From Methanocellales archaeon (GTDB lineage: Archaea > Halobacteriota > JAWCLZ01): a stretch of DNA of 56,212 nucleotides. A model generated the notes under the pieces. It was not told where the DNA came from, ran no database searches, and worked only from the letters and a program-made list of their open reading frames with translations. Positions 3,423 through 54,442 of this stretch are shown here, one piece after another (the stretch's first letter is position 1; each line of letters opens with the position of its first letter). The stretch lies in assembly GCA_038850285.1 (NCBI GenBank), contig JAWCMA010000003.1, forward strand, positions 1 to 56,212, read 5' to 3'. Made by a program: the position numbers and the translations under genes.

Positions 3423-4199
3423 GTGTTTGGTGATAATATGAAATTTGATGTAACAGTCAGAAAAGACTTGGCCACAACTGGCGTGAGAGGACTTGATTCA
3501 CTGCTAGGCGGGGGGGTACCATATGGCACTTCTCTCTTACTGCTAGCTGAACCAGGTGCAGGCTCTGAAACTTTTGCAGAGCAATTCATAATAGGGGGGC
3601 TGCAGAGTGGTGAAGAGGTGAGTTATTTCTCCACAGAGAGGCCTGTTGAGGAGATAAAAAAGGAGATGCTGCGCTTCAGTTGGGATACCACTCCCTTTGA
3701 AGAAGCCGGGAAAATAAAGTTCATCGACGCATATACCCCGAGATTCATACATATAATGCCAAAAGCTTTGATCAAAAAACAGGATGCAAAGGAATATCTT
3801 AGATCTGGCGCAGATGCCCTAAGTCTATTGAAATCTGTAATGGTAGATGAATGCACTACTGAGTATAGAGGAGTGATCGACTCCCTTTCATTCTTCCTCA
3901 CGAAGTATAATCTCGAGGATGTAACTAAAGTAATGGAGTCAGTGATGTCAATGGGCAAGGCTACGAGGGGTACAAGATTGTTCCTCATGACCCGCGGCAT
4001 GCATGATTCTTTGATTGAGAATACCATGAAGCACATGGCTGATGGAGTAATTGAATTTATAATTCGCGAGCGAGGCAGTGAATTGGAGAGACAGGTTGTA
4101 ATTCGAAAGATGAGAGGCATGTTCATCCCGAATAAGACTTTTGTTTACCATATAACTCCTCGAGGCATAGAACTCGAAACCACCACTAGAGTGCTTTAG
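3423..4199 (+). CDS. KaiC/RecA-superfamily single-domain protein with degenerate Walker A
   Basis: GVRGLDSLLGGGVPYGTSLLLLAEPGAGSETFAEQF: the P-loop reads GAGSE where GxGK[ST] is expected. It has a Walker-B-like VIDSLSFF and a C-terminal IRKMRG motif. The start could be the ATG at 3438. Confidence 0.8.
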   Translation: MFGDNMKFDVTVRKDLATTGVRGLDSLLGGGVPYGTSLLLLAEPGAGSETFAEQFIIGGLQSGEEVSYFSTERPVEEIKKEMLRFSWDTTPFEEAGKIKFIDAYTPRFIHIMPKALIKKQDAKEYLRSGADALSLLKSVMVDECTTEYRGVIDSLSFFLTKYNLEDVTKVMESVMSMGKATRGTRLFLMTRGMHDSLIENTMKHMADGVIEFIIRERGSELERQVVIRKMRGMFIPNKTFVYHITPRGIELETTTRVL

Positions 4200-4211: not shown

Positions 4212-4616
4212 ATGACAGGAGAATTGCTAAGCACGCATGTTAAGCCTAGACATATAAGTGAAGAAATACTCATATTCGGGAGCTGCACTGCAATCGAGTA
4301 TCCTGAGATTCTTAAAAAATTCAAAGAAAGTACAAAGCTGCATATCTGCCTTGAGAAATTCCACGTGGAGCAAGCTGCTTGGAAGATAGCTATGATAGCG
4401 AGAGAAAATGAAATTAAAAGCATTGCAGTATTAACAGTGGATGGCTCTCCTCACTGCCTGCAGCTGCACTTTGCACTTGAAGACCTGCAGAAATTATTTC
4501 CAAATTTGAAGGTAAGGCACTATGTGATAGAAAAATCAAAACTCCATGAGGTAAGCAGTGAAGCAATAAGAATCTCGAGGCATTTGAGTGCAATTGAAAA
4601 ACTGATAAGGGAGTGA
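4212..4616 (+). CDS. hypothetical protein (134 aa), family not recognised
   Basis: Protein-like ORF packed 12 nt after the KaiC-like gene and 4 nt before the PIN-ATPase gene. It contains three Cys. Confidence 0.5.
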   Translation: MTGELLSTHVKPRHISEEILIFGSCTAIEYPEILKKFKESTKLHICLEKFHVEQAAWKIAMIARENEIKSIAVLTVDGSPHCLQLHFALEDLQKLFPNLKVRHYVIEKSKLHEVSSEAIRISRHLSAIEKLIRE

Positions 4617-4620
4617 GAAT

Positions 4621-6441
4621 TTGAAAGTCGTTCCAGACACCAGCGTCATAATAGATGGTAGAATAACTGCTAAAATTGAAAGCGGTGAATTCGCAGGTGC
4701 AGAGATAATCATACCCGAGGCAGTTGTAGCTGAGCTTGAGGCTCAAGCTAATCAAGGCAGGGAAACGGGATTCAGCGGGCTCAATGAATTAAAAAAACTT
4801 AGTGAAATGGTCAAAGAGGGAAAAATTACCCTGAGATTCGCTGGCGATAGACCAACCCTTGAACAAATTAGATTGGCATCGAGAGGCGCGATTGATGCCG
4901 TGATCAGGCACATTGCCTCCGAAGCTGGCGCCACATTCATAACAAGTGATATAGTTCAAGCAGAGGTAGCCAGAGCCAAGGGCCTTGAGGTGATATATCT
5001 ATCTCCAGTTAAAGAACCGCTGGATAAACTCAGACTCGAGGAATTCTTCACTAAGGATACTATTTCAGTTCACTTGAAGGAGAGAGCTATTCCAATGGCA
5101 AAGAGAGGTGCAATTGGAAACCTGCGTTTAGTTGAGCTCAGGGATCGCCCAATGAGCGAGAAGGAAATGCGAGAATTAGCCCACGAGATAATTGAGAGAG
5201 CAAAGCGAGACCCCCATGGTTTTATTGAAATTGAGAAAGAGGGGGCAACCATTATTCAACTCGGGCCTATGAGAATAGCAATTGCAAGACCACCTTTTTC
5301 AGACGGCTTAGAGATAACTGCAGTTCGCCCAATTGCAAATATAAGCCTTGATGACTATCGAATGAGTCGAGAATTAAAAGAGCGCATTCTTGAAAAACAG
5401 CGAGGCATACTCATCGCTGGTCCACCTGGTGCGGGTAAGTCAACGCTTGCAGCTGGAATTGCACAGTATCTCCAAGAGCATGAATTTGTAGTCAAGACAA
5501 TGGAGAAACCCCGAGACTTGCAAGTTAGCGAGGAAATCACTCAATATACAGCGCTTGAGAATAGCATGGCGAATACCGCGGATATACTGCTCTTGGTCAG
5601 GCCAGATTATACAATATTCGATGAACTTCGCAAGACTGAAGATTTCAAGGTTTTCGCTGATCTGCGCTTAGCTGGCGTGGGAATGGTGGGCGTGGTGCAT
5701 GCTACTAGAGCAATCGATGCCCTTCAGAGGTTGATTGGAAGAGTGGAACTAGGTATAATTCCACAAATCGTGGATACCATTGTATTCGTGGAAGCAGGGG
5801 AGATCAAGAAAGTTTATGATATTAAGTTCACTGTTAAGGTCCCCAGCGGCATGGTTGAGGCAGACCTTGCAAGACCAGTTATAGAAGTAATTGATTTTGA
5901 AACCCGCGAACTTGAATTCGAAGTCTATTCTTTTGGAGAGCAAGTGGTTGTAATGCAGGTTGGGAGGGAAAGGGTAAAGAAACCAACTTGGAGACTTGTG
6001 GAGCGGGGTATTCAAAAAGAAGTTGGCAGATATACCGAGGGCTATGTGGAAGTGGAAATGAAGTCTGACTCAAAGGCAGTGGTTTACCTCGAAGAAGAAG
6101 ATATTCCACGAGTTTTAGGAAAGGGTGGGAAAACCATTGAGAAGATAGAAAAAGCGTTGGGTATAAGTATAGATGTTCGAAGCATTGAGGAGAAGAAAAA
6201 GGAGAAAATGAAGGGGGAGAAACTTCCAGTTAAAGTAGAAATAACGGATAAACATATAATTTTAAAGGTCAAAGGCTCGCCTGGCGATACAGTGGAGATA
6301 TATGCAGGTGGAAGTTATCTTTTCACAGCAACTATAGGCAGAGCAGGTGAAATAAAGATTACCAAGGGTTCAACCATTTCAGATGAAATTCAAGATATAA
6401 TTGAGGCAGGTGAAGAGATATATTCAAAATTTGTGGGATGA
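4621..6441 (+). CDS. PIN domain + PilT/PhoH-like P-loop ATPase + KH domain protein
   Basis: N-terminal PIN-like VVPDTSVIIDGR...TSD, Walker A GPPGAGKSTLA, and a C-terminal KH GxxG motif (VLGKGGKTIEKIEKALG). TTG start. Confidence 0.88.
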   Translation: MKVVPDTSVIIDGRITAKIESGEFAGAEIIIPEAVVAELEAQANQGRETGFSGLNELKKLSEMVKEGKITLRFAGDRPTLEQIRLASRGAIDAVIRHIASEAGATFITSDIVQAEVARAKGLEVIYLSPVKEPLDKLRLEEFFTKDTISVHLKERAIPMAKRGAIGNLRLVELRDRPMSEKEMRELAHEIIERAKRDPHGFIEIEKEGATIIQLGPMRIAIARPPFSDGLEITAVRPIANISLDDYRMSRELKERILEKQRGILIAGPPGAGKSTLAAGIAQYLQEHEFVVKTMEKPRDLQVSEEITQYTALENSMANTADILLLVRPDYTIFDELRKTEDFKVFADLRLAGVGMVGVVHATRAIDALQRLIGRVELGIIPQIVDTIVFVEAGEIKKVYDIKFTVKVPSGMVEADLARPVIEVIDFETRELEFEVYSFGEQVVVMQVGRERVKKPTWRLVERGIQKEVGRYTEGYVEVEMKSDSKAVVYLEEEDIPRVLGKGGKTIEKIEKALGISIDVRSIEEKKKEKMKGEKLPVKVEITDKHIILKVKGSPGDTVEIYAGGSYLFTATIGRAGEIKITKGSTISDEIQDIIEAGEEIYSKFVG

Positions 6442-7054: not shown

Positions 7055-7804
7055 TTAGACATATACTTCTTCGTGTGGATGCACCACTATTCCCCGAGAT
7101 GTAATCTCAAAAGGATGCAGCTTTCTGCTATGATCTGAGCCGCGCATCTTGAATACCTCTATGCTTCGCACTCGCACGTTTTCAGTTCGCCTGTAATACA
7201 TAGCAATGGTGCCCTCAGTGATAAATGGCTCTACGCCAAATCTGCTTGGATGATTCTCATCAACAACTTCGCAGGTTAAAAGCGAGGTTAAACCTAAAAT
7301 ATCCAGCGTGGCAGCAAGTTTCAAAAGCTCCAGGCGAATTCTAGGCACTTCACCCCCTAAAGAATAACCTATAGCAGTGGTGGAATCCACAACAGCACGC
7401 TGAGCATCTATTTCCTCTTGAACAGTTACTATCTGGTCGATTAGGGATCTTAAATCAAAAGGCCGAACATCTACATAGCGCTCGTGGGATGGTATGCCAA
7501 TTTTAGTTGCAGAGGCATCAATTATCGCTAGCTTCTTATCTTCCTCAAGTTTTTTTAAATCCCAGCCGAATGCAAGTACATCCTTTCTGATTTGCTCAGG
7601 GCGCTCCTCGGTGGCCACAAAAATTCCCCTCTCTCCATATTGTACAATACCATTGTAGAGGAATTGAACACCAAATATGGTCTTACCTGCACCGCTACCG
7701 CCTGCGAGTAGATAGCTTCTATCTCTGATCATTCCTCCGCCACATATCTCATCGAAACCTTCAATTCCTGTTTTCACGCGTTCATGCTTGTACGCCATAA
7801 CCAA
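7055..7804 (-). CDS. KaiC/RadA-like single-domain ATPase (intact P-loop)
   Basis: GIEGFDEICGGGMIRDRSYLLAGGSGAGKTIFGVQF (canonical Walker A), ATEE catalytic-Glu region, VVDS Walker B, FKMRG near the C-terminus. Confidence 0.88.
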   Translation of the reverse strand: MVMAYKHERVKTGIEGFDEICGGGMIRDRSYLLAGGSGAGKTIFGVQFLYNGIVQYGERGIFVATEERPEQIRKDVLAFGWDLKKLEEDKKLAIIDASATKIGIPSHERYVDVRPFDLRSLIDQIVTVQEEIDAQRAVVDSTTAIGYSLGGEVPRIRLELLKLAATLDILGLTSLLTCEVVDENHPSRFGVEPFITEGTIAMYYRRTENVRVRSIEVFKMRGSDHSRKLHPFEITSRGIVVHPHEEVYV

Positions 7805-10816: not shown

Positions 10817-11269
10817 TTAAAAAGCTAAAAAAAGCACGCCTGCGAACATCAGCACGAGTACGAGGAGTACTAGGATTATTGCAAGTGCAATTGCCAAGGA
10901 AGCATGCCTTACATCTGAGCCAAATATAATAGGAATCGGACCTATCATTACCACGCCCCCGCCCTTAATTTCTGTCCTTCGCTCCGGCTCAGCGATTTGC
11001 TCTAGTTCGATTCTCATTTGCATTTCCCTTTCGCGTATTCCACGTTGGAACCAGAAGAGAAAGAAGAAGTAAACTATGATGAGCAGGAGGCCGATTATCA
11101 TTGCTATCACTGTGAACTCCGCGGTTGATCCAAATGCAATTGGAATGGGGCCGATCATTATCAATCCACCGAAGTTTGCAGCGCTGGATAGAGCTAAAGC
11201 TAGAAATAGGATGAAAATTGCCATTACGGCAAAGATGAATATAATTGGTATGAGGGAAGCACGGTTCAT
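10817..11269 (-). CDS. small integral membrane protein with internal duplication (DUF131/TIGR00304-like)
   Basis: Two copies of GG(L/V)(I/V)MIGPIPI(A/I)FGS, each followed by a TM segment. Confidence 0.7.
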   Translation of the reverse strand: MNRASLIPIIFIFAVMAIFILFLALALSSAANFGGLIMIGPIPIAFGSTAEFTVIAMIIGLLLIIVYFFFLFWFQRGIREREMQMRIELEQIAEPERRTEIKGGGVVMIGPIPIIFGSDVRHASLAIALAIILVLLVLVLMFAGVLFLAF

Positions 11270-26395: not shown

Positions 26396-27202
26396 ATGAT
26401 GATAGCCATTTTAGGCCCTGAGGGTACGTTTTCTGAGAAGGCAGCTAAAATTTGGAGGAGAAAAGCAAAGCTGAAGTATTTCAATGATATCCCGGAGATA
26501 TTCAAAGAGGTAAGCGAGGGAAAGGTCGACTTCGCCATAGTACCTATCGAGAATTCCCTAGAGGGATCTGTGATTGCTACTTTGAATCTGCTGCTTGAGT
26601 CTGATTTGAAGATCGCTGGAGAAATAGTCATTCCCATAGATCACTGCTTGCTTTCCAAGGGAAAGCTTTCAAGTATAAAGGTCATTGTCTCCCATCCTCA
26701 AGCGTTGGCGCAGTGTAGCAGGTTTTTAAAATTAAAATTTCCCAATGCGGAGTTAAGAACTGTTGGAAGCACAGCTCATGCTGCTAAATTAGCCATGGAA
26801 TTTGAGGAAATGGCAGCTGTGGCTTCAGAGGAGGCTGCGGGTAAATATGGCTTGAATGTTTTAATGCGCGAGATTCAAGATGAGAGGGAAAATTACACTC
26901 GCTTCGCAGTACTAGCTAAGGAAATTCCCCGGCCCAGCAAAAGAAATAAAACCTCAATTGTGGTGCATTTGAAGGAAAATCGACCTGGAGCGCTATATGA
27001 ATTTTTAGGCGTATTTGCAAAGCGAAATATAAATCTAACTAAGATTGAATCCCGTCCGAGTAAAAAAGCGCTTGGAGATTATTTATTCTTCATTGATTTC
27101 GAGGGACATATAAGAGATAGAGCTGTTGTGGAGGCACTTGAGGAAGCCGAGGAGATGGTGGATAACTTAAAGGTGCTTGGCTCTTATCCAGCTGCACGCT
27201 AG
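26396..27202 (+). CDS. pheA: prephenate dehydratase (PDT + ACT domains)
   Basis: LGPEGTFSE N-terminus, NYTRF, TKIESRPSKK motif. Confidence 0.92.
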   Translation: MMIAILGPEGTFSEKAAKIWRRKAKLKYFNDIPEIFKEVSEGKVDFAIVPIENSLEGSVIATLNLLLESDLKIAGEIVIPIDHCLLSKGKLSSIKVIVSHPQALAQCSRFLKLKFPNAELRTVGSTAHAAKLAMEFEEMAAVASEEAAGKYGLNVLMREIQDERENYTRFAVLAKEIPRPSKRNKTSIVVHLKENRPGALYEFLGVFAKRNINLTKIESRPSKKALGDYLFFIDFEGHIRDRAVVEALEEAEEMVDNLKVLGSYPAAR

Positions 27203-27846
27203 AGCCTTTTTTTTATAATTCTCAAGCGGAGGTATATAAAGGCTATTAGGAGTAATAATGCGATTATTATAGCTATATAGGGTGCTTCAGCGTAGATCAA
27301 TTTTATCAAATCCATTGCTAGGCTAACTGTTACCGCCCATATCACAGAGGAAGATAGAGAGGCGACTAGGACTATGGGAAAAATTTGGTTCATTTTGAAT
27401 CCGAAGAGCTTTGCAATGCAAGCTGCTGTTAAAGCACCGGTTACTTGTAGAGGCACGAAGCATAGTACGAAGATTCCTATCAAGCCATATTTCCTCACAG
27501 GATTGTCTTTCTCCTGCTGCACCTTCTCCAGTCGCTTTATTGGTTCCGAGAGTAAGCGAGTTCTCTTAAGCTCGCTGTGAAACATCACGAATATGGGATA
27601 GCCCATGAATAGCACGAATACATCCTCAACTGCACTGCCAATTATCATCGTTGCCAGCGGTATTCCTTGAGCTGCACCGGAGATCATTGCCACTTCTCTG
27701 CCTACGAAAAATTGAGTGAGTGCTATGAAGCCCATTTGCGCTAGGAATTCAACTTTATAGAAATAGGAAAGCAGGGAAATAACTATTAAGCCTAAAACTC
27801 CGATTACAAATACAATTGTTAAGTTAAATCTATTCTCTTCAAGCAT
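27199..27846 (-). CDS. polytopic membrane protein, family uncertain
   Basis: Five or six hydrophobic helices. It possibly resembles small multidrug-export-like proteins, but I am not confident of the family. Confidence 0.6.
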   Translation of the reverse strand: MLEENRFNLTIVFVIGVLGLIVISLLSYFYKVEFLAQMGFIALTQFFVGREVAMISGAAQGIPLATMIIGSAVEDVFVLFMGYPIFVMFHSELKRTRLLSEPIKRLEKVQQEKDNPVRKYGLIGIFVLCFVPLQVTGALTAACIAKLFGFKMNQIFPIVLVASLSSSVIWAVTVSLAMDLIKLIYAEAPYIAIIIALLLLIAFIYLRLRIIKKRL

Positions 27847-28030
27847 CTCTACTACCTACTCCTGCGCGATATTCAATTTTTTCATTGTTTTTACTTGAAA
27901 CCAAAAATAATAAATTTTCATAAATTGAATCTTTTTGTTAATTATTGCAAATTTTTTCCTTATTATTATCATTATCAGCAAAATATTTATACGTTAAATT
28001 AATTATCATTAATATGAACTGGGGAGTTCT

Positions 28031-29791
28031 GTGGAGAAGGAAAAAGGCGCTGTCAAAAGAAGTCCAGAGGAAATCCGGTTACTACTTAGCCAGCTTCAGA
28101 TAGATGCAGCTGCGAAAGAAAAGCGGGAAGAACTTACCTTAGATTCAAAAGCTGCTGCTGAAACGCCAGTAATAGAAATCCCTAGAGAAGAAATCCATAG
28201 AGAAGGAAAAAAGAAAAAAATCGGACTTAAATGGCTATTCAAGAAACCTGAGCTTAAAAAGCAGGAAATTAAGATTGAAAAATACGATCCTGAGAAGCAT
28301 GGAGTAATAACTCACTTTGAGGGCATACCAGGCTATGAGGAAGTTGAGCGCTACTGGGTAACTGAGCCTTATGCTTTTGTTACAATACTCTACAGCAGAG
28401 AAAAAAATGAATATCTCTACCACGTGGTTGAACCAGCGCTAACTCCCTTTGAAAAAACCCTGCTTGAAGAGGTTCACGATCGCCTAGAGGATATCTTAAT
28501 ATTAGAGGACATCGATGCCTCCTTGGATAAAGAAAGCATTTTAGAACAGAAAACCGCTGCTATAATAAAGGACTACATAGGTGAAGTTGAGCCTCTTACG
28601 CTCTACAAAATCCTTTACTATGTGAAAAGGAACTTCGTAGATCTAGGGAGAATAACACCTTTAATGAATGATCAATTCATAGAAGATATATCCTGCAATG
28701 GCGCAGGCATACCACTCTATCTTTTCCATAAAAATTATGAAAATATTGTGACAAATATAATTTTCGAAGAGGAAGAATTGAATTCATTTGTAATACGCTT
28801 AGCTCAGCGCTGCGGTAAGCATATTTCAATAGCAGAGCCAATGGTGGATTCTACAATGCCAGATGGCTCAAGAATACAAATGACACTTGGCAAAGAAGTC
28901 ACAACTAAGGGAAGCACTTTTACCATAAGAAAATTCAAGGAAATCCCAATAACCGCTGTAGACTTAATAGTTTGGGGAACCTTCAACTCCGAGATAATGG
29001 CCTATCTCTGGCTAGCAATTGAAAATAACAAAAGCTTAATCTTCGCAGGAGGCACCGCCTCAGGGAAAACCACAACTTTAAATGCAGTAGCACTTTTCAT
29101 CCCTCCTAGAGCAAAAATTGTTACTCTTGAAGATACAAGAGAGCTAAAGCTACCTCATCAAAACTGGATCCCTGGGGTAACTAGAGACTCTTTCACAGCT
29201 GATGGGAGAGGAGCCATCGATATGTATGAGCTATTGAGAGCTGCACTTAGACAGCGCCCTGAATACCTCATCGTGGGAGAAGTCCGAGGCAAAGAAGCAC
29301 TCACGCTCTTCCAAGCAATGAGCACAGGCCACACCACTTTTTCAACAATGCACGCTGACTCCGTAGCCTCAGCCATACATAGACTTGAAAATCCCCCAAT
29401 TAGCGTCCCGCGTTCCATGATTCAAGCCCTCAATATTATGAGCATACAAGCTCAGACATATACCAAGGGGAAGCGCGTTAGGCGGAATTTGAAGATAGTT
29501 GAAATCACTGATATAGATCCAGTTACTAGGAACATACGCACAGTGGATATCTACGCCTGGGACTCAGTTACCGATAGATTTGAAAGAGTTGGAGATTCAA
29601 AAGTACTCAGAGACATAGCTGAACGCCGAGGCTGGACTAGGTATCAGCTTCAAGAGGAACTTAAAAGAAGGCAAGATATCTTGGAATACATGGTGAAGCA
29701 CAAGATAAGAGATTACTACACTATTTCAACGATTATACAGGAGTACTACATCAATCCCGAGAAAACCTTGAGGAAATTGAAGTTAGGGTGA
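28031..29791 (+). CDS. type IV filament / archaellum-type secretion ATPase (ArlI/PilB/VirB11-like)
   Basis: Walker A GGTASGKTTTLNA, RPEYLIVGEVRGKEA, His-box-like TGHTTFSTMHA. About 100 aa of K/E-rich N-terminal extension. GTG start preceded by GGGGAG. Confidence 0.9.
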   Translation: MEKEKGAVKRSPEEIRLLLSQLQIDAAAKEKREELTLDSKAAAETPVIEIPREEIHREGKKKKIGLKWLFKKPELKKQEIKIEKYDPEKHGVITHFEGIPGYEEVERYWVTEPYAFVTILYSREKNEYLYHVVEPALTPFEKTLLEEVHDRLEDILILEDIDASLDKESILEQKTAAIIKDYIGEVEPLTLYKILYYVKRNFVDLGRITPLMNDQFIEDISCNGAGIPLYLFHKNYENIVTNIIFEEEELNSFVIRLAQRCGKHISIAEPMVDSTMPDGSRIQMTLGKEVTTKGSTFTIRKFKEIPITAVDLIVWGTFNSEIMAYLWLAIENNKSLIFAGGTASGKTTTLNAVALFIPPRAKIVTLEDTRELKLPHQNWIPGVTRDSFTADGRGAIDMYELLRAALRQRPEYLIVGEVRGKEALTLFQAMSTGHTTFSTMHADSVASAIHRLENPPISVPRSMIQALNIMSIQAQTYTKGKRVRRNLKIVEITDIDPVTRNIRTVDIYAWDSVTDRFERVGDSKVLRDIAERRGWTRYQLQEELKRRQDILEYMVKHKIRDYYTISTIIQEYYINPEKTLRKLKLG

Positions 29792-31734
29792 ATATGAATA
29801 GCATAGAAAAATTTGCATATAAACTCTTCGGCGGAGAAGTGAAAAAAAAGAAGCCTAAATACTATAATTTGCAGAAGAAACTCAGGCAGGCTAGAATAGC
29901 TAGACCTTGGGATGTCTATGTTTCAACCGCAATGCTTTACTCCGCGATTGCAAGTTTAATTGGAGCTATAATAGGCGCTATAGCAGCATATGTGGCAGTA
30001 GTGCTAGTAGGTCTACCCAGGGAATTAACCAAGCTATACCTCCCGCCTGAACTCACTTGGTTGCTTCAATATCGCGATTTCATAGTGGCTTTATTTATCT
30101 TCTCAAGCTTTTCGTTGATCTTCGGAATTGCAGCTTATTTTTTAGTAATGATGCTCCCAGCGTTTATAGCTAATGAAAGGAAGCGAAAGATCCAGAGAAA
30201 TCTACCATATGCAGTTACCTTCATGTATGCATTAAGCAGGGGGGGAATGAATATCATAGAAATACTTCAAGCACTAGCAGCTAGCTCAAATACCTATGGC
30301 GAGGTCTCGAGGGAAGCCTCCCTTATTTTAAGAGACATGGAATACTTCGGCCACGACTTGAGAAGTGCACTGCAAAATGCAATTTTACTCTCCCCATCAG
30401 AGGGTTTTCAAGAACTCCTAGCCAATTTGGTATCAGTTATAGATAGCGGAGGTGATATAACCAAATACTTGGAGGATAAAGCCGAGCAACTTCACATTCG
30501 CGCAGTTCAAGAGCAAAAAGGCTTCCTTGAAACCCTTGGTTTAATCGCTGAATCCTATGTCACAGCCTTCGTCGCTGGACCCCTTTTCATAATCATCATG
30601 ACAACAGTGATGACACTCATAGGAGGCGCCAGTGAAACAATGCTCCATGTAATAGCCTATGTAGTTGTACCAGTTGGAAGTGCAATGTTCGTGATATTAA
30701 TAAACATAATAACACCCTCAGATGAAACAAAGACAGCGCTATTCTCAGAAGAAAAAATAGAGGTATATAAACGAGAGAGAGTGGCTGAACCAGAAGAAGA
30801 TGAAAGCAGGAAATTTGAATTGATTCAAAAGGCAAAGAAAACCCTAGCATTAAGAGAATTCCTCTCCAATCCACTGAAGCCAATTAAAGAAAAACCCCTG
30901 CTCTCATTAATATTAAGCGTGCCAGCTGCAGCTATATTCTTCGCAGCTGAAGTACTTCTCCATATAAATGATCTCACAATCGCTGCTCTAGATGACTATA
31001 TAGTTTTCAGCATCTTAATTGCCCTAGCACCTCTATCATTTTTCCATGAATTAAAAATCAGAAGGGAAAATAAAATTCAAGCAGAAATGCCTGATTTCTT
31101 GAAGAAACTCGCCACCACAAATGAAACTGGCATGACTCTCTCTCAATCAATTGCCTTAATATCCAAAACTAATTATGGCGTGCTAGGCCAAGAAGTCAAA
31201 AAAATGTGGCGCGATATGGAATGGGGGGCCTCGGTGACTCAAGCACTCATTAGATTTGCAAATAGAGTTCGAACAAGTCTAGCTACCCGCATTGTAACTC
31301 TAATTACAAAGGCAAGTGAATCCACTGGGGATATAGGAATAGTGCTAAATATAGCGGCAAAAGACGCAGCGATGAGCCAGCAATTGAGAAGAGAGAGGAT
31401 TCAAAATATGTTCATCTATGTAGTTATAATCTACATATCATTCTTGGTATTCGTTGCAATAGTATTCATCCTCTCCTCAACTTTTCTACCTGTAATGGCA
31501 AGTGCCGGATCAAAAGTACAGGCCACTAAAACCGCTAGAGCAGCAGTTATGCTAAAAGGCTTCGACCTTTTAAAGTACAATAGACTGTTCTTCCACTCAG
31601 CAGTCATCCAAGGCTTTTGCTCAGGCTTAATAGCAGGTCAAATGGGAGAGGGCAATGTTTTCTCAGGATTGAAGCATTCCCTTATAATGATGATAATCAG
31701 CTACCTGCTATTCACATTATTGATCGGAGTATGA
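29788..31734 (+). CDS. polytopic platform protein with two T2SS-F-like repeats (ArlJ/PilC/TadC-like)
   Basis: Two repeats (LPYAVTFMYALSRGGMNIIEIL... and MPDFLKKLATTNETGMTLSQSI...), each followed by TM helices. It overlaps the ATPase gene by 4 nt. Confidence 0.88.
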   Translation: MNMNSIEKFAYKLFGGEVKKKKPKYYNLQKKLRQARIARPWDVYVSTAMLYSAIASLIGAIIGAIAAYVAVVLVGLPRELTKLYLPPELTWLLQYRDFIVALFIFSSFSLIFGIAAYFLVMMLPAFIANERKRKIQRNLPYAVTFMYALSRGGMNIIEILQALAASSNTYGEVSREASLILRDMEYFGHDLRSALQNAILLSPSEGFQELLANLVSVIDSGGDITKYLEDKAEQLHIRAVQEQKGFLETLGLIAESYVTAFVAGPLFIIIMTTVMTLIGGASETMLHVIAYVVVPVGSAMFVILINIITPSDETKTALFSEEKIEVYKRERVAEPEEDESRKFELIQKAKKTLALREFLSNPLKPIKEKPLLSLILSVPAAAIFFAAEVLLHINDLTIAALDDYIVFSILIALAPLSFFHELKIRRENKIQAEMPDFLKKLATTNETGMTLSQSIALISKTNYGVLGQEVKKMWRDMEWGASVTQALIRFANRVRTSLATRIVTLITKASESTGDIGIVLNIAAKDAAMSQQLRRERIQNMFIYVVIIYISFLVFVAIVFILSSTFLPVMASAGSKVQATKTARAAVMLKGFDLLKYNRLFFHSAVIQGFCSGLIAGQMGEGNVFSGLKHSLIMMIISYLLFTLLIGV

Positions 31735-32522
31735 ATACCCACGAATATAAACACGAATATAAACAGCTTAAACAAGATATTTATTATAAAAAAGCTAACT
31801 TAGAGATTAAAAGCTCGAGGCGTGCATCTACAGTGAAGAAATCAACTGGAATAGAAATCCTCGACAAAAACCTTGGAGGAGGCATACCATCAGGCTCAAT
31901 AGTATATTTCACCTCCGATCCAAAATCAATGTCAGAGGTATTCCTATTCCACTTCACCACTCCTCGCATAACTTATTACTTTGCAACAGATAGAAGACCT
32001 AAATACATAGAAGAAGACATTCGAAGGCTTGACTTTGACGCTAGCAATATTCGCTTTATAGATATATATAAAATGTACTATGAAGACGCTGCCTCTCTAG
32101 GTTTAGAGCGAGAAAATATAGATAATTACATCCTCGAGTTCTTAGAAAATGAACTTCAAAGTTTATATTTAAATGGCGAGAAAGACTTCACTTGCATCAT
32201 AGATTCCTTCTCATTCTTCCTAGAGTTAAATATCAACTTCAATCGAATTAAAAGTACCATTAACTTGATCTACGAGGTCATAAAAAACACTGAGAGCATC
32301 TGCTATCTCTACATACTTAAAGGCGTGCATGATCAAAAAATCGAGAACTTGCTCTTAAACATCTCAGACGTGGTTTTCGACATAGAAATTGAGAAAAAAG
32401 GCGAAAAAATTGCCAATAAACTTTCAATACCAAAAATAAGAGGCACCATACCAACAACTGACTTCATAAAATTCAAAATAGCAGAAGGAGTTATAATTGA
32501 TACCTCGAGAGATATAGCATAG
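31731..32522 (+). CDS. KaiC/ArlH(FlaH)-like RecA-fold protein with degenerate P-loop
   Basis: GIEILDKNLGGGIPSGSIVYFTSDPKSMSEVFLFHF: the P-loop position lacks G-K-[ST]. It has a Walker-B-like IIDSFSFF and a C-terminal PKIRG. The ATG at 31731 forms an ATGA overlap with the platform-gene stop. The track's start at 31617 lies inside the platform gene. Confidence 0.75.
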   Translation: MNTHEYKHEYKQLKQDIYYKKANLEIKSSRRASTVKKSTGIEILDKNLGGGIPSGSIVYFTSDPKSMSEVFLFHFTTPRITYYFATDRRPKYIEEDIRRLDFDASNIRFIDIYKMYYEDAASLGLERENIDNYILEFLENELQSLYLNGEKDFTCIIDSFSFFLELNINFNRIKSTINLIYEVIKNTESICYLYILKGVHDQKIENLLLNISDVVFDIEIEKKGEKIANKLSIPKIRGTIPTTDFIKFKIAEGVIIDTSRDIA

Positions 32523-32555: not shown

Positions 32556-33239
32556 CTATTTCTTTTCTAATTCTAATTTCTTATGGCAAAGCCACCAGTC
32601 ATAATACTCAAATTCGCCTGCTTTTGCTTTTTCAAGGCGCTCTTTTGCGGTTTTCACATCCCTAGCTGGTGGAATAATTACGTGGTCTTTCACTATCTCG
32701 TTATTTGGCCAGTTAGCAGGCATAGCCACATTGTATTTATCAGCTATCTGCATAGCTTCCACTATCCTTAGGATCTCATCCATATTTCTGCCTAATTCCT
32801 GTGGATAATAAAGGATAATTCGTATTTTTGCTTTGTCGTCTACAACAAAAACCGCTCTAACTGTGTTTGTTCCTTTCCCGGGATGAATAAGCCCAAGCAT
32901 CTCCGCAATTGCTCCCGTATCGGCAATTATCGGAAATTGAATTTCCACGCCAAGCTTTTCCTTTATCCATTCTTCCCACTTTATGTGGGAAAAAACTTGA
33001 TCCATACTAAGACCAATGAGTTCACAATTTAATGCTTTGAATTTTTCGTATCTCTTTTGAAAAGCAACGAATTCTGTTGTACAAACAGGCGTGAAATCTG
33101 CGGGATGGCTGAAAAGAACAAACCATTTTCCAGAAAAAGCCTTTGGAAGTTCCATCACTCCATGAGTGGTTTGCACTTTCATTTCCGGGAAATTATCCCC
33201 CAAAAGGGGCATGCTTTTCTTTCCTTGTATATTTTCCAT
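32556..33239 (-). CDS. peroxiredoxin (1-Cys/Prx6-like AhpC-TSA family)
   Basis: Active site [12 protein letters not shown], 227 aa. Confidence 0.93.
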
Positions 33240-34073: not shown

Positions 34074-34826
34074 GTGATTGATATAAAAATTGCTGTCAGT
34101 GGGAAAGGTGGTGTGGGTAAAACAACCATTGCAGGCAGCCTGGCGAGATTGCTCGCTAGCGATGGATTGAGTGTGCTCGCAATTGATTGCGATCCAGATA
34201 TGAATCTTGCCTCTGCACTAGGTATAAGGGGAAATCCAAAGCCAATTTCAGAGTTAAAAGACCTAATTGCAGAGAGAGCAGGTGGAAGGAATGGGATATA
34301 TAAGCTCAATCCCAAGGTGGATGATGTGATTGATAAATATGCACTTAGTGCGCATGGCGTGCGCTTGATTGCAATGGGCACAATTGAGCGAGGGGGGAGT
34401 GGCTGTTTATGCCCGGCCTCAGCGTTTCTACGCGCGCTTATACGCCACGCGATTTTCAAGGAAAAAGTGGTGATCTTCGACATGGCCGCGGGAATAGAAC
34501 ACCTTGGAAGAGGCACCGCTGAGGGTGTTGACTTAATGCTTGCTGTGGTTGAACCTGGTATGCGCAGCCTAGAAACTGTAAAGAGAATTCAAAAACTCTG
34601 CGGAGAGCTGGGGATAAAGAAAATCGCTGGAGTTATCAATAAAGATGTGGGAAACACTAAAGTTGAGCAAGTGCTGGCGGAACTTGGAATTTCAGTGCTG
34701 GGTAAAATCCCATTTGACCCGGCTTTGGTTAAAGCAGACCTTGAAAAAATTCCACCTGTAGAAGTAGCCTGTCCCGCGAGAGAGGCATTGATTGAGTTGA
34801 AGGAAAATCTTAAAAAGTTGATTTAA
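34074..34826 (+). CDS. CooC/AcsF-like MinD-superfamily P-loop NTPase
   Basis: Deviant Walker A VSGKGGVGKTT and the metal-binding CxC motif GGSGCLCPA. GTG start. Confidence 0.85.
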   Translation: MIDIKIAVSGKGGVGKTTIAGSLARLLASDGLSVLAIDCDPDMNLASALGIRGNPKPISELKDLIAERAGGRNGIYKLNPKVDDVIDKYALSAHGVRLIAMGTIERGGSGCLCPASAFLRALIRHAIFKEKVVIFDMAAGIEHLGRGTAEGVDLMLAVVEPGMRSLETVKRIQKLCGELGIKKIAGVINKDVGNTKVEQVLAELGISVLGKIPFDPALVKADLEKIPPVEVACPAREALIELKENLKKLI

Positions 34827-35564
34827 ATGCAAGTAGGAGTTATAACGCGGGGTAAATATGGCAAGCGCTTGATCGAAGTAGTGAAAAATAAAACCCCATT
34901 TAAAGTTATCTCAATAGAACTACCAATATTGCTCCCTGAGTTCATCGATGATCCTGGGAAATTCTTGGATGAGCTAAAAATTAACAACGCAGTTTTCAAA
35001 GCAGATTTAATCATAAGTTATGCCTTGCACGCGGATTTAAATCCTGAGATAGTTAGAAGAGCAGCGCTGAGTGGAGCAAGGGCAGTTATAATAGCAGGTA
35101 CGAAGAACTCCTTAATTTACCAAGAACTAAGGAGGAAATATGATATAGCTCTAGAGGTAAGCGAGGTCTGCTGTTCGCTAGTGAATCCTGAGAATGAAGT
35201 GCTTGAGAAATGGTTTAAGTACTTTGGCATGCCCGAGTATGAAATCCAGGTTGAGGATGGCAGGATTAGTGAAGTTAAAGTAATTCGAAGCACACCCTGT
35301 GGGGGAAGCTACTACGTGGCTGAGAATCTCCTTGGCACCAAAGTTGAAGAAGCACCTAGAAAAGCAGCTTTACTGGTGCAATATTATCCATGTCGAGCCT
35401 CTCGAGGTTGGATCGATGGTAAATGCGGCGCGATCCATCTCTCAGGCGAGCTTCAAATGCGCGCAGTGGAGAGAGCGTTGGAGAAACGGTTGAATGTTAA
35501 AGTTAGCTCTGCGGATTCTCGGCAACGAGTTAATGAAAAATGGAAAATGGAAAAAAATATTTAA
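34827..35564 (+). CDS. Cys-containing hypothetical protein, possibly DUF166 family
   Basis: It starts on the nucleotide after the CooC-like stop. The CC, PCGGS and YYPCRAS motifs recall archaeal DUF166. The family call is from memory only. Confidence 0.5.
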   Translation: MQVGVITRGKYGKRLIEVVKNKTPFKVISIELPILLPEFIDDPGKFLDELKINNAVFKADLIISYALHADLNPEIVRRAALSGARAVIIAGTKNSLIYQELRRKYDIALEVSEVCCSLVNPENEVLEKWFKYFGMPEYEIQVEDGRISEVKVIRSTPCGGSYYVAENLLGTKVEEAPRKAALLVQYYPCRASRGWIDGKCGAIHLSGELQMRAVERALEKRLNVKVSSADSRQRVNEKWKMEKNI

Positions 35565-39720: not shown

Positions 39721-40359
39721 TTAAAAGTAGCAAAAAACTGGTTGAAAAGCAAGACCGCTAGATCCCTCATAAGAAAACCAGAAAAAATCATCGCTTGTCC
39801 ATGGATATCCTCTAGGTACATAGTAATCATAAAAAGCAGTTTTATTCAAAATTAATCCCGCGGTTGGATCGTAAACCATATCATTAATTTCCACCCAAGC
39901 ATGGCCTGTTCCATAGCAGGCAAGGAGCAAGGATAAGTTGGATTTATTCAACTGCGAGGTGTAATTTATATTCACATTTCCAAGCACAACTTTAACATAA
40001 TTCTTTTTATTATATGGCTCCCCCAAGTAATATGCTGCAGATGCAAATGCAATTGCTTTATCCTCGCAATCGCCAGCTTTATTGACATAAAACTCACTAG
40101 CTCTTGCGTAGTGATCAAAGCAGTGATATAGCTCTTGATCGCTAGCATAAGGCAAGCTATGAATGTAATAAAAGTTCTCCAACAGCGTTGAATTCGACCC
40201 AGCGCAATTAAACCACTGCCCGCGATCGCCATCTCTCACTTTTTCTATAAACCAGAAATAATATTCACCAACTGGCTCGCGGTGCAGCAGCTCGTCATGC
40301 ACCAGCGTAGAAATTATTAAGCTGGAGATTAAAATTGCCATCAATATTAATGCTCTCAA
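39721..40359 (-). CDS. transglutaminase-like cysteine protease-fold protein, N-terminally anchored
   Basis: N-terminal hydrophobic anchor and a Cys-His-Asp core: GDCEDKAIAF, GHAWVEI, YDPT. Confidence 0.75.
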   Translation of the reverse strand: MRALILMAILISSLIISTLVHDELLHREPVGEYYFWFIEKVRDGDRGQWFNCAGSNSTLLENFYYIHSLPYASDQELYHCFDHYARASEFYVNKAGDCEDKAIAFASAAYYLGEPYNKKNYVKVVLGNVNINYTSQLNKSNLSLLLACYGTGHAWVEINDMVYDPTAGLILNKTAFYDYYVPRGYPWTSDDFFWFSYEGSSGLAFQPVFCYF

Positions 40360-46413: not shown

Positions 46414-47538
46414 ATGGATAAAGAGGAGCTGAGAATCTACAGTGGAAAACTAATTATACTCAACGTCTTCGATCACGGCGGGCAGATCGAAAAGGAGAAG
46501 CTCTGCAGAGCATTAAACTGCCCAGTTAGTTTGGACTGGGATAAACCAGTGGAAATAAAACTAGGGGAGAGCGAAGGCATAATTGCCTCTAAAGGCGAAG
46601 AGAAACCCTGCAGAATAAAGGTATACTCTGATTTATTCCCAGCGGGCTCTTCAATTATAAGAGTGGAGATAGAATTCAGCAATGCAAACTTCGCACTTCT
46701 AGACCTAACTAGAGCAATTCACAGCCCAGCGATTTACATAGATGGCGAAGAACTATATGGCTATGTAAACAAGCGAGTGGAAGAAATAAGAGATAAGCTA
46801 AAACCATACGTTGAGAGCAATTACTTAATTGAAAAAGGCTACTACCCTTGGATAAGCGATTACGCCATTTTAAAAGTCAGCGAGTTCACGCCAAAGGTGA
46901 ATCAAAATGAACTCAAAAGAACCTATGGATCAGAGCTCACCTTATTCCTCTCAGGAGAGGCAAGCACTAGAATTCTCCATGGAAAGGAAATCGCAGAAAA
47001 GCTAAGCCACGATATTTCCTACTACGATGACGAGCTATTCCTCGCTGCCTATGAATATGCCCTCGTTTGGAAATGCGATGACTACTTCACTGAGCTATTG
47101 CGCTACATCGAACTCGCCCTCTCCCTATCGCTAACTTTTCACGCCTACGACTGGCGCATTGACAGCGAAATTGAAGAAGCATATAATGCAATAAAACTAG
47201 CTCAAAGACCACTCATCTTCAGCCAAGCACCCCGCAAGCTGGAAAAAGCTTTGCTAAAAGTAAGCGAGATGCATTTAGATATCCTAGACAACATCGAAGA
47301 CCTAATGAACCCAGTAAAGATAACTCCAGACTGGTACTATCAATCAGCCTATGAGCGAATTCTAAAGATTTTAAAAGTCAATGAATTTGAAAAAATAGTG
47401 GAGGAAAAAATCCACACCCTGCAAGAACTATACAACACTAGTCAAGAAATCTCCTATAGCAAAATCGCAATGATACTTGAAATATTAATCGTCCTGCTAA
47501 TAGCATTTGAAATCGTGCTCTTTTTATGGATAATTTGA
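46414..47538 (+). CDS. tail-anchored hypothetical protein, possibly DUF155/RMD1(YagE)-like
   Basis: 374 aa, soluble body with a single C-terminal TM (IAMILEILIVLLIAFEIVLFLWII). The family suggestion rests only on my recollection of the C-terminal LE..I..LI..E pattern. Confidence 0.6.
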   Translation: MDKEELRIYSGKLIILNVFDHGGQIEKEKLCRALNCPVSLDWDKPVEIKLGESEGIIASKGEEKPCRIKVYSDLFPAGSSIIRVEIEFSNANFALLDLTRAIHSPAIYIDGEELYGYVNKRVEEIRDKLKPYVESNYLIEKGYYPWISDYAILKVSEFTPKVNQNELKRTYGSELTLFLSGEASTRILHGKEIAEKLSHDISYYDDELFLAAYEYALVWKCDDYFTELLRYIELALSLSLTFHAYDWRIDSEIEEAYNAIKLAQRPLIFSQAPRKLEKALLKVSEMHLDILDNIEDLMNPVKITPDWYYQSAYERILKILKVNEFEKIVEEKIHTLQELYNTSQEISYSKIAMILEILIVLLIAFEIVLFLWII

Positions 47539-53416: not shown

Positions 53417-54442
53417 ATGTTTAAGAAAGTGGTGAGAGAAGCGAGGTTTAAAAACCATTTAAAAGGCTTTGAACTGGATATTCAGCAGATTGAATATAGA
53501 AAAGATCCCTTGCTAAATAGGTGGTGCAGAATAAATGTACTTCGAGCTCAAAGGAGAAAGGAATTTATAGCTCGTTCAGATATCTCAGAGTTGATCAAGA
53601 GCTCAGCCGAGAAATGCTACTTCTGCCCTGATAGAATTCAAACTCAAACACCCATGTTCGCTGAGGAAATCGCTCCTGAGGGTAGAATCAGCGTGGGGGA
53701 GAGCACTGTCTTTCCAAACCTAAATCCTTTTGCGCAGTATCACGCAGTTGCAACTATCACTCAAAAGCATTATTTAAGGCTGGAGGACTTCACGGAAAAG
53801 CAAATTCGAGATACAATAATAGCGAGCTTGGAGTATATAAAGCGGGTGAATAAATTTGATGGAAAAGCGAAATTTTCCACTTTAAACTGGAATTATCTAC
53901 CCCCATCTGGAGCGAGCATAGTTCATCCGCATGTTCAAATCACAGTGGATCCACAGCCAACCTATTTCCTAGATTCCCTGCTTAAGGCAAGCAGTCGCTA
54001 TTATCGCAAGCATAAAGAGAACTTCTGGCATTGCCTATTAACTAAGGAGAAAGAAATTAACGAGCGATATATTGCGAGCATTGGAAGCACTGATTGGCTA
54101 GCGAGCTTTGTACCGCTTGGAAATAATGAAGTGAGCATTATTTTTAAGGATATAGCTTCCATAGTTGAGCTAACCCCTAATTTAATTCAAGATTTTGCCA
54201 TTGGATTGAAAAAAGCACTCTATGCTTACTCCTGCTTTAGCGTGGAGAGCTTCAACTTAAGTTTTTACTCTGCACCTGTAAATGACACCAAAGCCTATTG
54301 CTTGAATGCCAAGCTTATCTCTAGACCGAGGTTGAATTATTATTATACTAACGACGCAGGCTTCATGGAGAGATTGCACAGCGAAGTTGTGGTTGAATCA
54401 AGTCCGGAAGCGATCGCTATGGAGATGAAGCAGTTCTTTTAA
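53417..54442 (+). CDS. GalT-like nucleotidyltransferase (galactose-1-phosphate uridylyltransferase / HIT branch III)
   Basis: Zinc motif CYFCP and the active-site HPHVQ (HxHxQ). Confidence 0.85.
   Translation: MFKKVVREARFKNHLKGFELDIQQIEYRKDPLLNRWCRINVLRAQRRKEFIARSDISELIKSSAEKCYFCPDRIQTQTPMFAEEIAPEGRISVGESTVFPNLNPFAQYHAVATITQKHYLRLEDFTEKQIRDTIIASLEYIKRVNKFDGKAKFSTLNWNYLPPSGASIVHPHVQITVDPQPTYFLDSLLKASSRYYRKHKENFWHCLLTKEKEINERYIASIGSTDWLASFVPLGNNEVSIIFKDIASIVELTPNLIQDFAIGLKKALYAYSCFSVESFNLSFYSAPVNDTKAYCLNAKLISRPRLNYYYTNDAGFMERLHSEVVVESSPEAIAMEMKQFF

Follow-up and report, generated by a model that had tools for sequence, protein, structure and literature searches.

The locus described here raises the question of whether three adjacent genes, whose best-named NCBIfam matches are FlaI, ArlJ and ArlH and which stand without filament genes, encode the motor of an archaellum, the motor of a pilus or a machine without a filament, and what the third gene product contributes to it. 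The genes lie within a stretch of 56,212 nucleotides from a Methanocellales archaeon (GenBank assembly GCA_038850285.1, contig JAWCMA010000003.1, positions 1 to 56,212 of the forward strand), the whole of which is referred to below as the window, and they encode, in this order, a PilB-type ATPase, a PilC-type platform protein and a protein of the Pfam family DUF7125 (Table 1). An earlier note, made from the sequence alone, described them as three tightly coupled open reading frames (ORFs), which proved correct, and suggested that they represent an undescribed variant. Our analysis provides good support for assigning the ATPase and platform to the euryarchaeal Clade 2 (PilB3/PilC3-like) type IV pilus core, and not to the archaellum. 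The explanation of the whole trio that we favour, with moderate confidence, is that it forms a Clade 2 pilus core whose pilins are supplied in trans, with the DUF7125 protein acting as a nucleotide-independent, ArlH-like accessory of the ATPase.

The ATPase matched Pfam T2SSE (PF00437; E = 1.5e-37, 129.5 bits) above the gathering score, as well as PilB3_C (PF23989; 40.1 bits) and PilB3_N (PF23990; 32.3 bits), again above their gathering scores (Pfam cut-off, 27 bits), and its Walker A motif, GGTASGKT, is intact. The closest solved structure is that of Archaeoglobus fulgidus GspE (afGspE; PDB 2OAP/2OAQ), which has the same catalytic motifs and against which the protein scored 469 bits (2OAP), as compared to 313 bits against Sulfolobus acidocaldarius FlaI. 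Because the GspE alignment spans residues 101-584, the K/E-rich and poorly conserved residues 1-100 represent an extra extension that afGspE lacks, and the earlier description of an N-terminal extension of about 100 residues is thus accurate. The length of this extension varies widely in the family; the window protein is among the shortest members, orthologues mostly have 650-800 residues and some cluster representatives exceed 1500 residues. Orthologues that are 62-70% identical were found in Methanocella paludicola (70%), Methanocella conradii, Methanoperedens, Methanohalobium and Methanomethylovorans. The cognate two-repeat platform gene lies directly downstream and overlaps or abuts the stop codon of the ATPase gene. 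The platform protein of the window matched Pfam T2SSF (1.4e-33) in two stretches, which correspond to the two T2SS-F-like repeats that had been noted before.

The names of the best NCBIfam matches, together with the ArlH-like fold predicted for the third protein, are what would be expected of a split archaellum locus, consisting of arlI, arlJ and a degenerate arlH, with the archaellins and arlF/G/C/D/E located elsewhere. However, all three scores were far below the curated equivalog cut-offs. The ATPase scored 416.2 bits against the FlaI equivalog (ArlI model NF058587; cut-off, 550), the platform 102.7 bits against the best ArlJ equivalog (cut-off, 550; ArlJ thresholds, 400-570) and the third protein 38.1 bits against the ArlH equivalog (NF052589; cut-off, 215). 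The platform also scored 79 bits against UpsF, for which the cut-off is 400. We searched 1.8 billion 50%-identity cluster representatives and retained the 150 clusters nearest to the ATPase (at least 410 bits); all ten ArlI-sized proteins sampled from them fell below the ArlI cut-off of NCBIfam, at 322-457 bits.

The clade of the ATPase was read from the published supplementary tree of Makarova, Koonin and Albers (2016), in which the M. paludicola orthologue was matched by gene position. Gene order indicates that the entry GI 282163997 is probably this orthologue. In the tree, it carries the label Clade_2 and groups with Archaeoglobales, and the haloarchaeal PilB3 group (the Haloferax volcanii and Halobacterium NRC-1 entries) shares a larger branch with it. 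The Methanocella-type ATPase therefore appears in a sister subclade with Archaeoglobales, outside of the haloarchaeal PilB3 branch. Going by the Clade_2 label of the orthologue, the window ATPase falls outside the archaellum clade (Clade 3), and the same tree includes a separate archaellum-clade ATPase in Methanocella genomes. The curated thresholds, the greater similarity of the ATPase to afGspE than to FlaI and the published tree led us to reject a split archaellum, and the third protein lacks the Walker A motif that is required for ArlH function. We consider the probability of this explanation to be very small. The conclusion of the earlier note that this is not a canonical archaellum operon holds.

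The 30 further window ORFs that were scanned are housekeeping genes, and Pfam scans of them, which covered ORFs of 40 residues or more, yielded no Peptidase_A24, archaellin or Arl family. None of arlB/C/D/E/F/G or arlX was found in the 56-kb window. The earlier note had reported no class III signal peptide in the window; similarly, a six-frame scan that considered all starts, using a FlaFind-like regular expression that is weaker than FlaFind, gave no convincing instance. One candidate pilin (MNRA/SLIPIIF...) was rejected as a DUF131 membrane protein that misses the FlaFind pattern.

The missing filament genes are unsurprising, because related PilB3-type operons take their pilins from elsewhere. 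According to three reports (PMC4858521, PMC4292770, PMC6491452), H. volcanii pilB3-C3 assembles the pilins PilA1-6, which are encoded elsewhere; pil-1 of Halobacterium salinarum is a 4.4-kb transcript with three ORFs, pilB1, pilC1 and OE2210R, without prepilin genes within approximately 100 kb; and deletion of pilB1 caused the loss of thin adhesive filaments. The window locus resembles both in several respects: its ATPase carries the PilB3_N and PilB3_C domains and precedes a long PilC with two repeats, the operon of approximately 4.4-4.5 kb lacks pilin genes, and the major clade of the ATPase is the same. It also resembles pil-1 in its number of genes. Thus, of the two possibilities raised in the earlier note, a filament machine with substrates encoded elsewhere is the best-supported reading, and we infer that the pilus functions in adhesion.

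The lack of a pilin or peptidase gene in the window could also reflect a transport machine that builds no filament, in which a PilB/PilC-like motor and a pseudo-ATPase adaptor mediate protein secretion or DNA transfer without pilins. Pilin-free two-component ATPase systems occur in Thermoproteales (subclade 4D, as outlined in PMC4858521). In contrast to those systems, which have a short platform protein with 4-5 transmembrane segments, the window encodes a full two-repeat PilC. Furthermore, PilB3 of H. volcanii and PilB1 of H. salinarum, which are of the same clade, were found experimentally to assemble adhesion pili from pilins provided in trans, and homologues on a Haloferax plasmid lie among pilin genes (see below). 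We therefore regard a filament-less machine as improbable.

The third protein matched DUF7125 (PF23442; E = 5.5e-29) with 101.2 bits, above the gathering threshold of 29.1, and all of its close homologues carry this family; a weaker match was to Pfam KaiC (1.7e-10). An AlphaFold model using 28 homologues had a predicted local distance difference test score (pLDDT) of 81.3 and a predicted template-modelling score of 0.80. In a Foldseek search with this model, KaiC was the top match (E = 2e-14) and FlaH (PDB 4YDS) the second, and comparison to 4YDS gave a template-modelling score of 0.79 (target-normalised) and a root-mean-square deviation of 2.9 Å. The protein is thus predicted to have a single-domain RecA/KaiC fold similar to that of ArlH (FlaH), and DUF7125 is a paralogue of ArlH/KaiC. 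In the alignment, the sequence SDPKSMSE corresponds to GEPGTGKT of SSO2452, which, together with the model, bears out the earlier view of a KaiC/ArlH fold without a P-loop. The loss is not peculiar to this locus, since the Walker A loop is absent from every aligned DUF7125 member. The corresponding position reads ADPxSMSE in methanogens and PPASQSEL in haloarchaea, and conservation across the family reaches at least 90% for S66 and E69. Because the P-loop is replaced by a conserved S-x-S-E motif, DUF7125 proteins are predicted from their sequences not to bind ATP.

Fifteen alignment columns, including D158, K235, R237 and D257, are invariant from methanogens and Methanocellales to Halobacteria, and we therefore view DUF7125 as a conserved pseudo-enzyme under constraint and not as a decaying gene. 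Unlike an active KaiC-family autokinase or ATPase, it lacks the Walker A lysine and threonine, while the Walker B aspartate (D158) and a K-x-R-G motif (K235 and R237) are kept. The extreme C-terminus, IDTSRDIA, follows a consensus, [IV]D[TV]SR[DN]I[AV], that extends from methanogens to haloarchaea. Residues 259-263 were modelled with low confidence (pLDDT below 50), so this tail is probably flexible, and it is a candidate docking peptide.

At least 531 loci in Methanosarcinales, Methanocellales, Methanoperedens and anaerobic methanotrophic (ANME)-2 archaea encode DUF7125 relatives, and there is a large sister group in haloarchaea. We sampled the best 80 of these loci, with one genome per GTDB species, and the upstream region could be judged in 67 of them. 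A platform sequence was located directly 5' of the DUF7125 gene in 14 of the 67 (13 full genes and one remnant). Ten of the linked loci belong to Methanocellales/Methanocella, two to ANME-2 and one is unclassified, and the remnant is that of the Methanosarcinales archaeon Met33H. The earlier note had asked whether the order of ATPase, platform and P-loop-less protein is conserved in related genomes. It was present in all ten Methanocellales-labelled loci sampled, and the same trio occurs in the complete genome of the cultured M. paludicola SANAE; beyond this group the linkage is partial, and 53 of the 67 judgeable loci had neither an ATPase nor a platform gene next to DUF7125.

A second, independent linkage in another gene order was found on plasmid pHME505 of Haloferax mediterranei, where the DUF7125 gene heads a complete pilus locus and a typical haloarchaeal pilin gene lies divergently upstream of it. 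Here too, the DUF7125 protein lacks the P-loop. The PilB of this locus is 41% identical to the window ATPase and has long N- and C-terminal extensions, and its PilC is 30% identical to the window platform over the full length. The 931-residue PilB is absent from the PLSDB gene table. A plasmid of Salinibaculum sp. KK48 carries one gene for an A24-family peptidase, possibly a prepilin peptidase, and one for a TFIIB-family protein (TFB) no more than 6 kb from DUF7125, with genes for replication and repair (PCNA, Hjc) in the surroundings. In the complete 987-kb genome of Met33H, all that is left of the platform just 5' of an intact DUF7125 ORF is a C-terminal remnant of 49 residues (65% identical), and the ATPase was not detectable in the fetched locus. 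Also abutting the DUF7125 gene, on the opposite strand, is a pilin-like gene whose product of 137 residues has a class III signal peptide (MSLRENDQGQ/IIILAGFILAMGVIFF); a TFIIB gene lies close by. It looks like a recent loss of the pilus core in which the pseudo-ATPase was kept. DUF7125 and the ATPase subclade were both seen in Methanocella and in other genera, among them Methanolobus, Methanococcoides and Methanohalophilus, and among the matches listed neither was seen in Methanosarcina; these similar phyletic ranges are no more than suggestive. Pilus genes thus accompany DUF7125 repeatedly, in lineages distant from one another and in two arrangements, but far from universally.

Several observations weigh against a dedicated role of DUF7125 in the pilus. 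Most of the judgeable loci, as noted above, lack an adjacent motor gene. In Methanosarcinaceae, DUF7125 has a helicase-like gene on one side and another opposite-strand gene on the other, without any link to pili; a gene for a TPR protein precedes it in Methanoperedens; and it is solitary in Halobacterium hubeiense and Halohasta. Conversely, in Methanomethylovorans and Methanoperedens no DUF7125 gene neighbours the orthologous ATPase-platform pairs, which are located next to RNase HII or flanked by a MinD-like gene and UvrB. The intact DUF7125 ORF of Met33H hints at a function that is independent of this ATPase. Finally, ArlH requires bound ATP to dock on the ArlI ring, which it does as a hexamer, and leaves upon autophosphorylation (PMC8978795), so a homologue without a P-loop cannot work as ArlH does.

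These observations raise the possibility that an ordinary PilB3/PilC3-type core merely happens to be followed by a general KaiC-family signalling or housekeeping protein that has its own targets, in which case the operon link would be weak or at most regulatory. Such a general protein would account for the solitary copies and the several different conserved neighbourhoods in most of the sampled genomes, for its persistence in Met33H after the ATPase and platform had gone from the locus, and for the Methanomethylovorans and Methanoperedens pairs that lack an adjacent copy. Moreover, a paralogous KaiC-like gene with a degenerate P-loop accompanies a PINA-like ATPase gene in the window itself, which indicates that such proteins are not pilus-specific. 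In contrast, a chance neighbour would not be expected to reappear beside pilus genes in lineages far apart and in two arrangements, one of them a full haloarchaeal locus with pilins, nor to keep the ATGA coupling to the platform gene, which is preserved in the closest relative; the similar phyletic range of the ATPase subclade, though suggestive only, points in the same direction. We consider a general KaiC-family protein unlikely, and in that event the locus would be an ordinary PilB/PilC operon.

In the pilus core with a nucleotide-independent accessory that we favour, the hexameric PilB-type ATPase would power the PilC-type platform, which would pull processed pilins out of the membrane and polymerise them, the pilins and prepilin peptidase being encoded elsewhere in the genome, as for pilB3-C3 and pil-1. 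DUF7125 would take the role of ArlH for the pilus motor by docking on the ATPase ring from its cytoplasmic side, and may serve there as a nucleotide-independent scaffold or modulator of activity. Speculatively, the conserved glutamate at the position of the Walker A threonine and the Lys/Arg of the K-x-R-G motif might replace the subunit contacts that a nucleotide otherwise bridges, and the flexible IDTSRDIA tail might be the docking peptide. From gene linkage and the predicted fold, DUF7125 probably binds the ATPase physically and affects its activity. A regulatory pseudo-ATPase that docks on a secretion ATPase, the other possibility raised in the earlier note, is accordingly the most plausible role for the third gene, as an interpretation of these data.

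The comparison with ArlH illustrates what would be unusual about such a protein. Like DUF7125, ArlH consists of one RecA/KaiC domain, comparable in size and fold, and is encoded in an operon with a VirB11-type ATPase and a platform protein. Unlike DUF7125, ArlH has an intact Walker A motif, autophosphorylates, and binds ATP, on which its function depends; the gene order also differs, being I-J-H in the trio as opposed to H-I-J in arl operons. ArlH is usually counted among the parts that separate the rotating archaellum from non-rotating archaeal pili. A conserved ArlH-like protein that lacks the P-loop and is translated together with the ATPase and platform of an adhesion pilus would be informative about the evolution of the archaellum motor from that of a pilus. 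If DUF7125 does bind the ATPase, it would offer a natural "nucleotide-free" comparison for the role of ATP binding and autophosphorylation in ArlH. Haloarchaeal DUF7125 genes occur in genetically tractable species for which PilB3-C3 adhesion and piliation assays exist.

A broader proposal, which we put forward only tentatively and hold to be possible but doubtful, is that DUF7125 is an unrecognised third core component of Clade 2 adhesion pili in Methanocellales, Methanosarcinales and Halobacteria, possibly including H. volcanii PilB3-C3, where a nucleotide-independent paralogue of ArlH would reside permanently on the PilB hexamer. If so, the ArlH-like ring would not be specific to the archaellum and would be an older feature of this branch of filament motors, with two alternative modes, one gated by ATP in archaella and the other constitutive in pili. 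In the haloarchaeal chromosomes that were checked, those of H. hubeiense and Halohasta, DUF7125 is not beside the PilB/PilC pair, unlike in the trio. We also considered whether OE2210R of the pil-1 operon might be a DUF7125 protein. This was set aside as unconfirmed, since the pil-1 paper gives no description of OE2210R and the DUF7125 gene of H. hubeiense stands alone after a ParA-like gene.

The arrangement itself is not new. In its passages on pilus operons, the census of Makarova et al. (2016) reports that KaiC-family genes (arCOG01171-01175) are often in or beside archaeal pilus operons, contrary to the view in the earlier note that archaeal pilus loci have no KaiC-like partner, and names arCOG01172/01173 as possibly co-transcribed with VirB11/TadC in "Methanomicrobia", which then included Methanocellales. 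DUF7125 may or may not correspond to one of these two arCOGs. Those passages treat the KaiC genes as ATPases with autokinase-type signalling and make no mention of P-loop loss. Given this mention, the trio in cultured Methanocella and the existence of a Pfam family, we regard the trio as a known, uncharacterised arrangement. To call it an undescribed variant was an overstatement, as pilin-free Clade 2 operons had been described as well. A full-text literature search, which did not extend to the 2017 mBio survey of archaeal KaiC-like ATPases, returned no paper on DUF7125. What remains new is the proposal that adhesion pili have a counterpart of ArlH that works without nucleotide.

Table 1. Features of the window and of the loci compared with it. 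Positions refer to the window unless a fetched locus is named, in which case they refer to that locus.
Feature	Position	Strand	Description
ATPase	28031..29791	+	PilB-type hexameric assembly ATPase, VirB11/T2SSE superfamily; 586 residues; GTG start
Platform	29788..31734	+	PilC/TadC-type, polytopic, two T2SSF repeats; 648 residues from GTG 29788
DUF7125 protein	31731..32522	+	Predicted single-domain KaiC/ArlH fold without Walker A loop; 263 residues from ATG
SDPKSMSE	31914..31937	+	Codons 62-69; Walker A position (GxxGxGK[ST]); Lys replaced by Ser, Thr by Glu
IDTSRDIA	32496..32519	+	Residues 256-263, extreme C-terminus of DUF7125 protein; D257 invariant, S259 and I262 at least 90% conserved
Possible archaeal TATA box, TTTATA	27986..27991	+	About 40 nucleotides 5' of the ATPase start codon; read by eye
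Shine-Dalgarno-like ribosome-binding site, GGGGAG	28021..28026	+	4 nucleotides 5' of the ATPase GTG; read by eye
Upstream flank	27199-27846	-	Sm_multidrug_ex membrane protein
Downstream flank	32556-33239	-	AhpC/1-Cys peroxiredoxin
Second KaiC-like protein	3423-4199	+	P-loop-degenerate; Walker A AEPGAGSETF, with the same Lys to Ser and Thr to Glu replacements
ORF	4212-4616	+	134 residues; no family match
PINA-like protein	4621-6441	+	PIN domain and PilT/VirB11-type ATPase; PRK13764, 884 bits
Third KaiC-like protein	7055-7804	-	Single domain; intact Walker A GGSGAGKT; Pfam KaiC 5e-73
Rejected pilin candidate	10817-11269		DUF131 membrane protein
ParA/CooC-like P-loop ATPase	34074-34826	+	Fer4_NifH, CbiA and ArsA matches; 1.5 kb 3' of the trio
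ParA/CooC-like ATPase and DUF166 protein, as a pair	34074-35564	+
ORF	39721-40359	-	212 residues; no Pfam match at E <= 1e-5
ORF	46414-47538	+	374 residues; no Pfam match at E <= 1e-5
ORF	53417-54442	+	341 residues; no Pfam match at E <= 1e-5
Trio of the closest relative	L002 4246-6033, 6037-7977, 7974-8762
H. mediterranei pHME505 pilus locus	L082 6083-14329		DUF7125 (207 residues), PilB (931), PilC (674), two class III signal-peptide proteins, in this order
Salinibaculum sp. KK48 plasmid locus	L083 7004-13315
Met33H locus	L054 6659-8672
Methanoperedens PilB-PilC locus	L089 7210-12226
H. hubeiense DUF7125 locus	L084 6365-7627

The nearest relatives of the window are Methanocellales metagenome-assembled genomes. 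In the closest of them (L002), the third protein is 94% identical to that of the window. The ATGA overlap at 31731-31734 that joins the stop codon of the platform gene to the ATG of the DUF7125 gene, which had been pointed out before, is confirmed in the window and is also present in this relative. The mechanical ORF of the DUF7125 gene begins further upstream, at TTG 31617. At the other junction, the TGA stop codon of the ATPase gene occupies 29789-29791, and the 4-nucleotide overlap at 29788-29791 that had been claimed exists if the platform starts at GTG 29788. With ATG 29794, the start taken in the public annotation, it is replaced by a 2-nucleotide spacer and the protein has 646 residues. 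The very high AT content of the whole intergenic region makes the putative TATA box a weak call. Both flanks are unrelated opposite-strand genes, a membrane protein and a peroxiredoxin, as was described from the sequence.

MinD/ParA-type ATPase genes were observed near several of these loci. In Methanoperedens, a MinD-type ATPase gene lies 8 nucleotides 5' of the orthologous PilB-PilC pair, and in H. hubeiense a divergent ParA-like gene lies 27 nucleotides 5' of the solitary DUF7125 gene. A link between these and the ParA/CooC-like ATPase of the window was considered and dropped, in view of identities of 27-34% over partial lengths and a generic relation. The window protein looks more like a nickel-insertion (CooC-type) ATPase, and it and the DUF166 protein gene that follows are probably unrelated to the pilus genes.

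The second KaiC-like protein of the window shares 26% identity with the DUF7125 protein along its full length (E = 3e-23). A metagenome scan for it returned a single near-identical fragment, which was uninformative on synteny. Its gene is followed by the 134-residue ORF and the PINA-like gene, so that, together with the trio, the window has two clusters in which a pseudo-KaiC is paired with an ATPase of the secretion superfamily. The third KaiC-like protein, encoded nearby on the opposite strand, has an intact Walker A motif.

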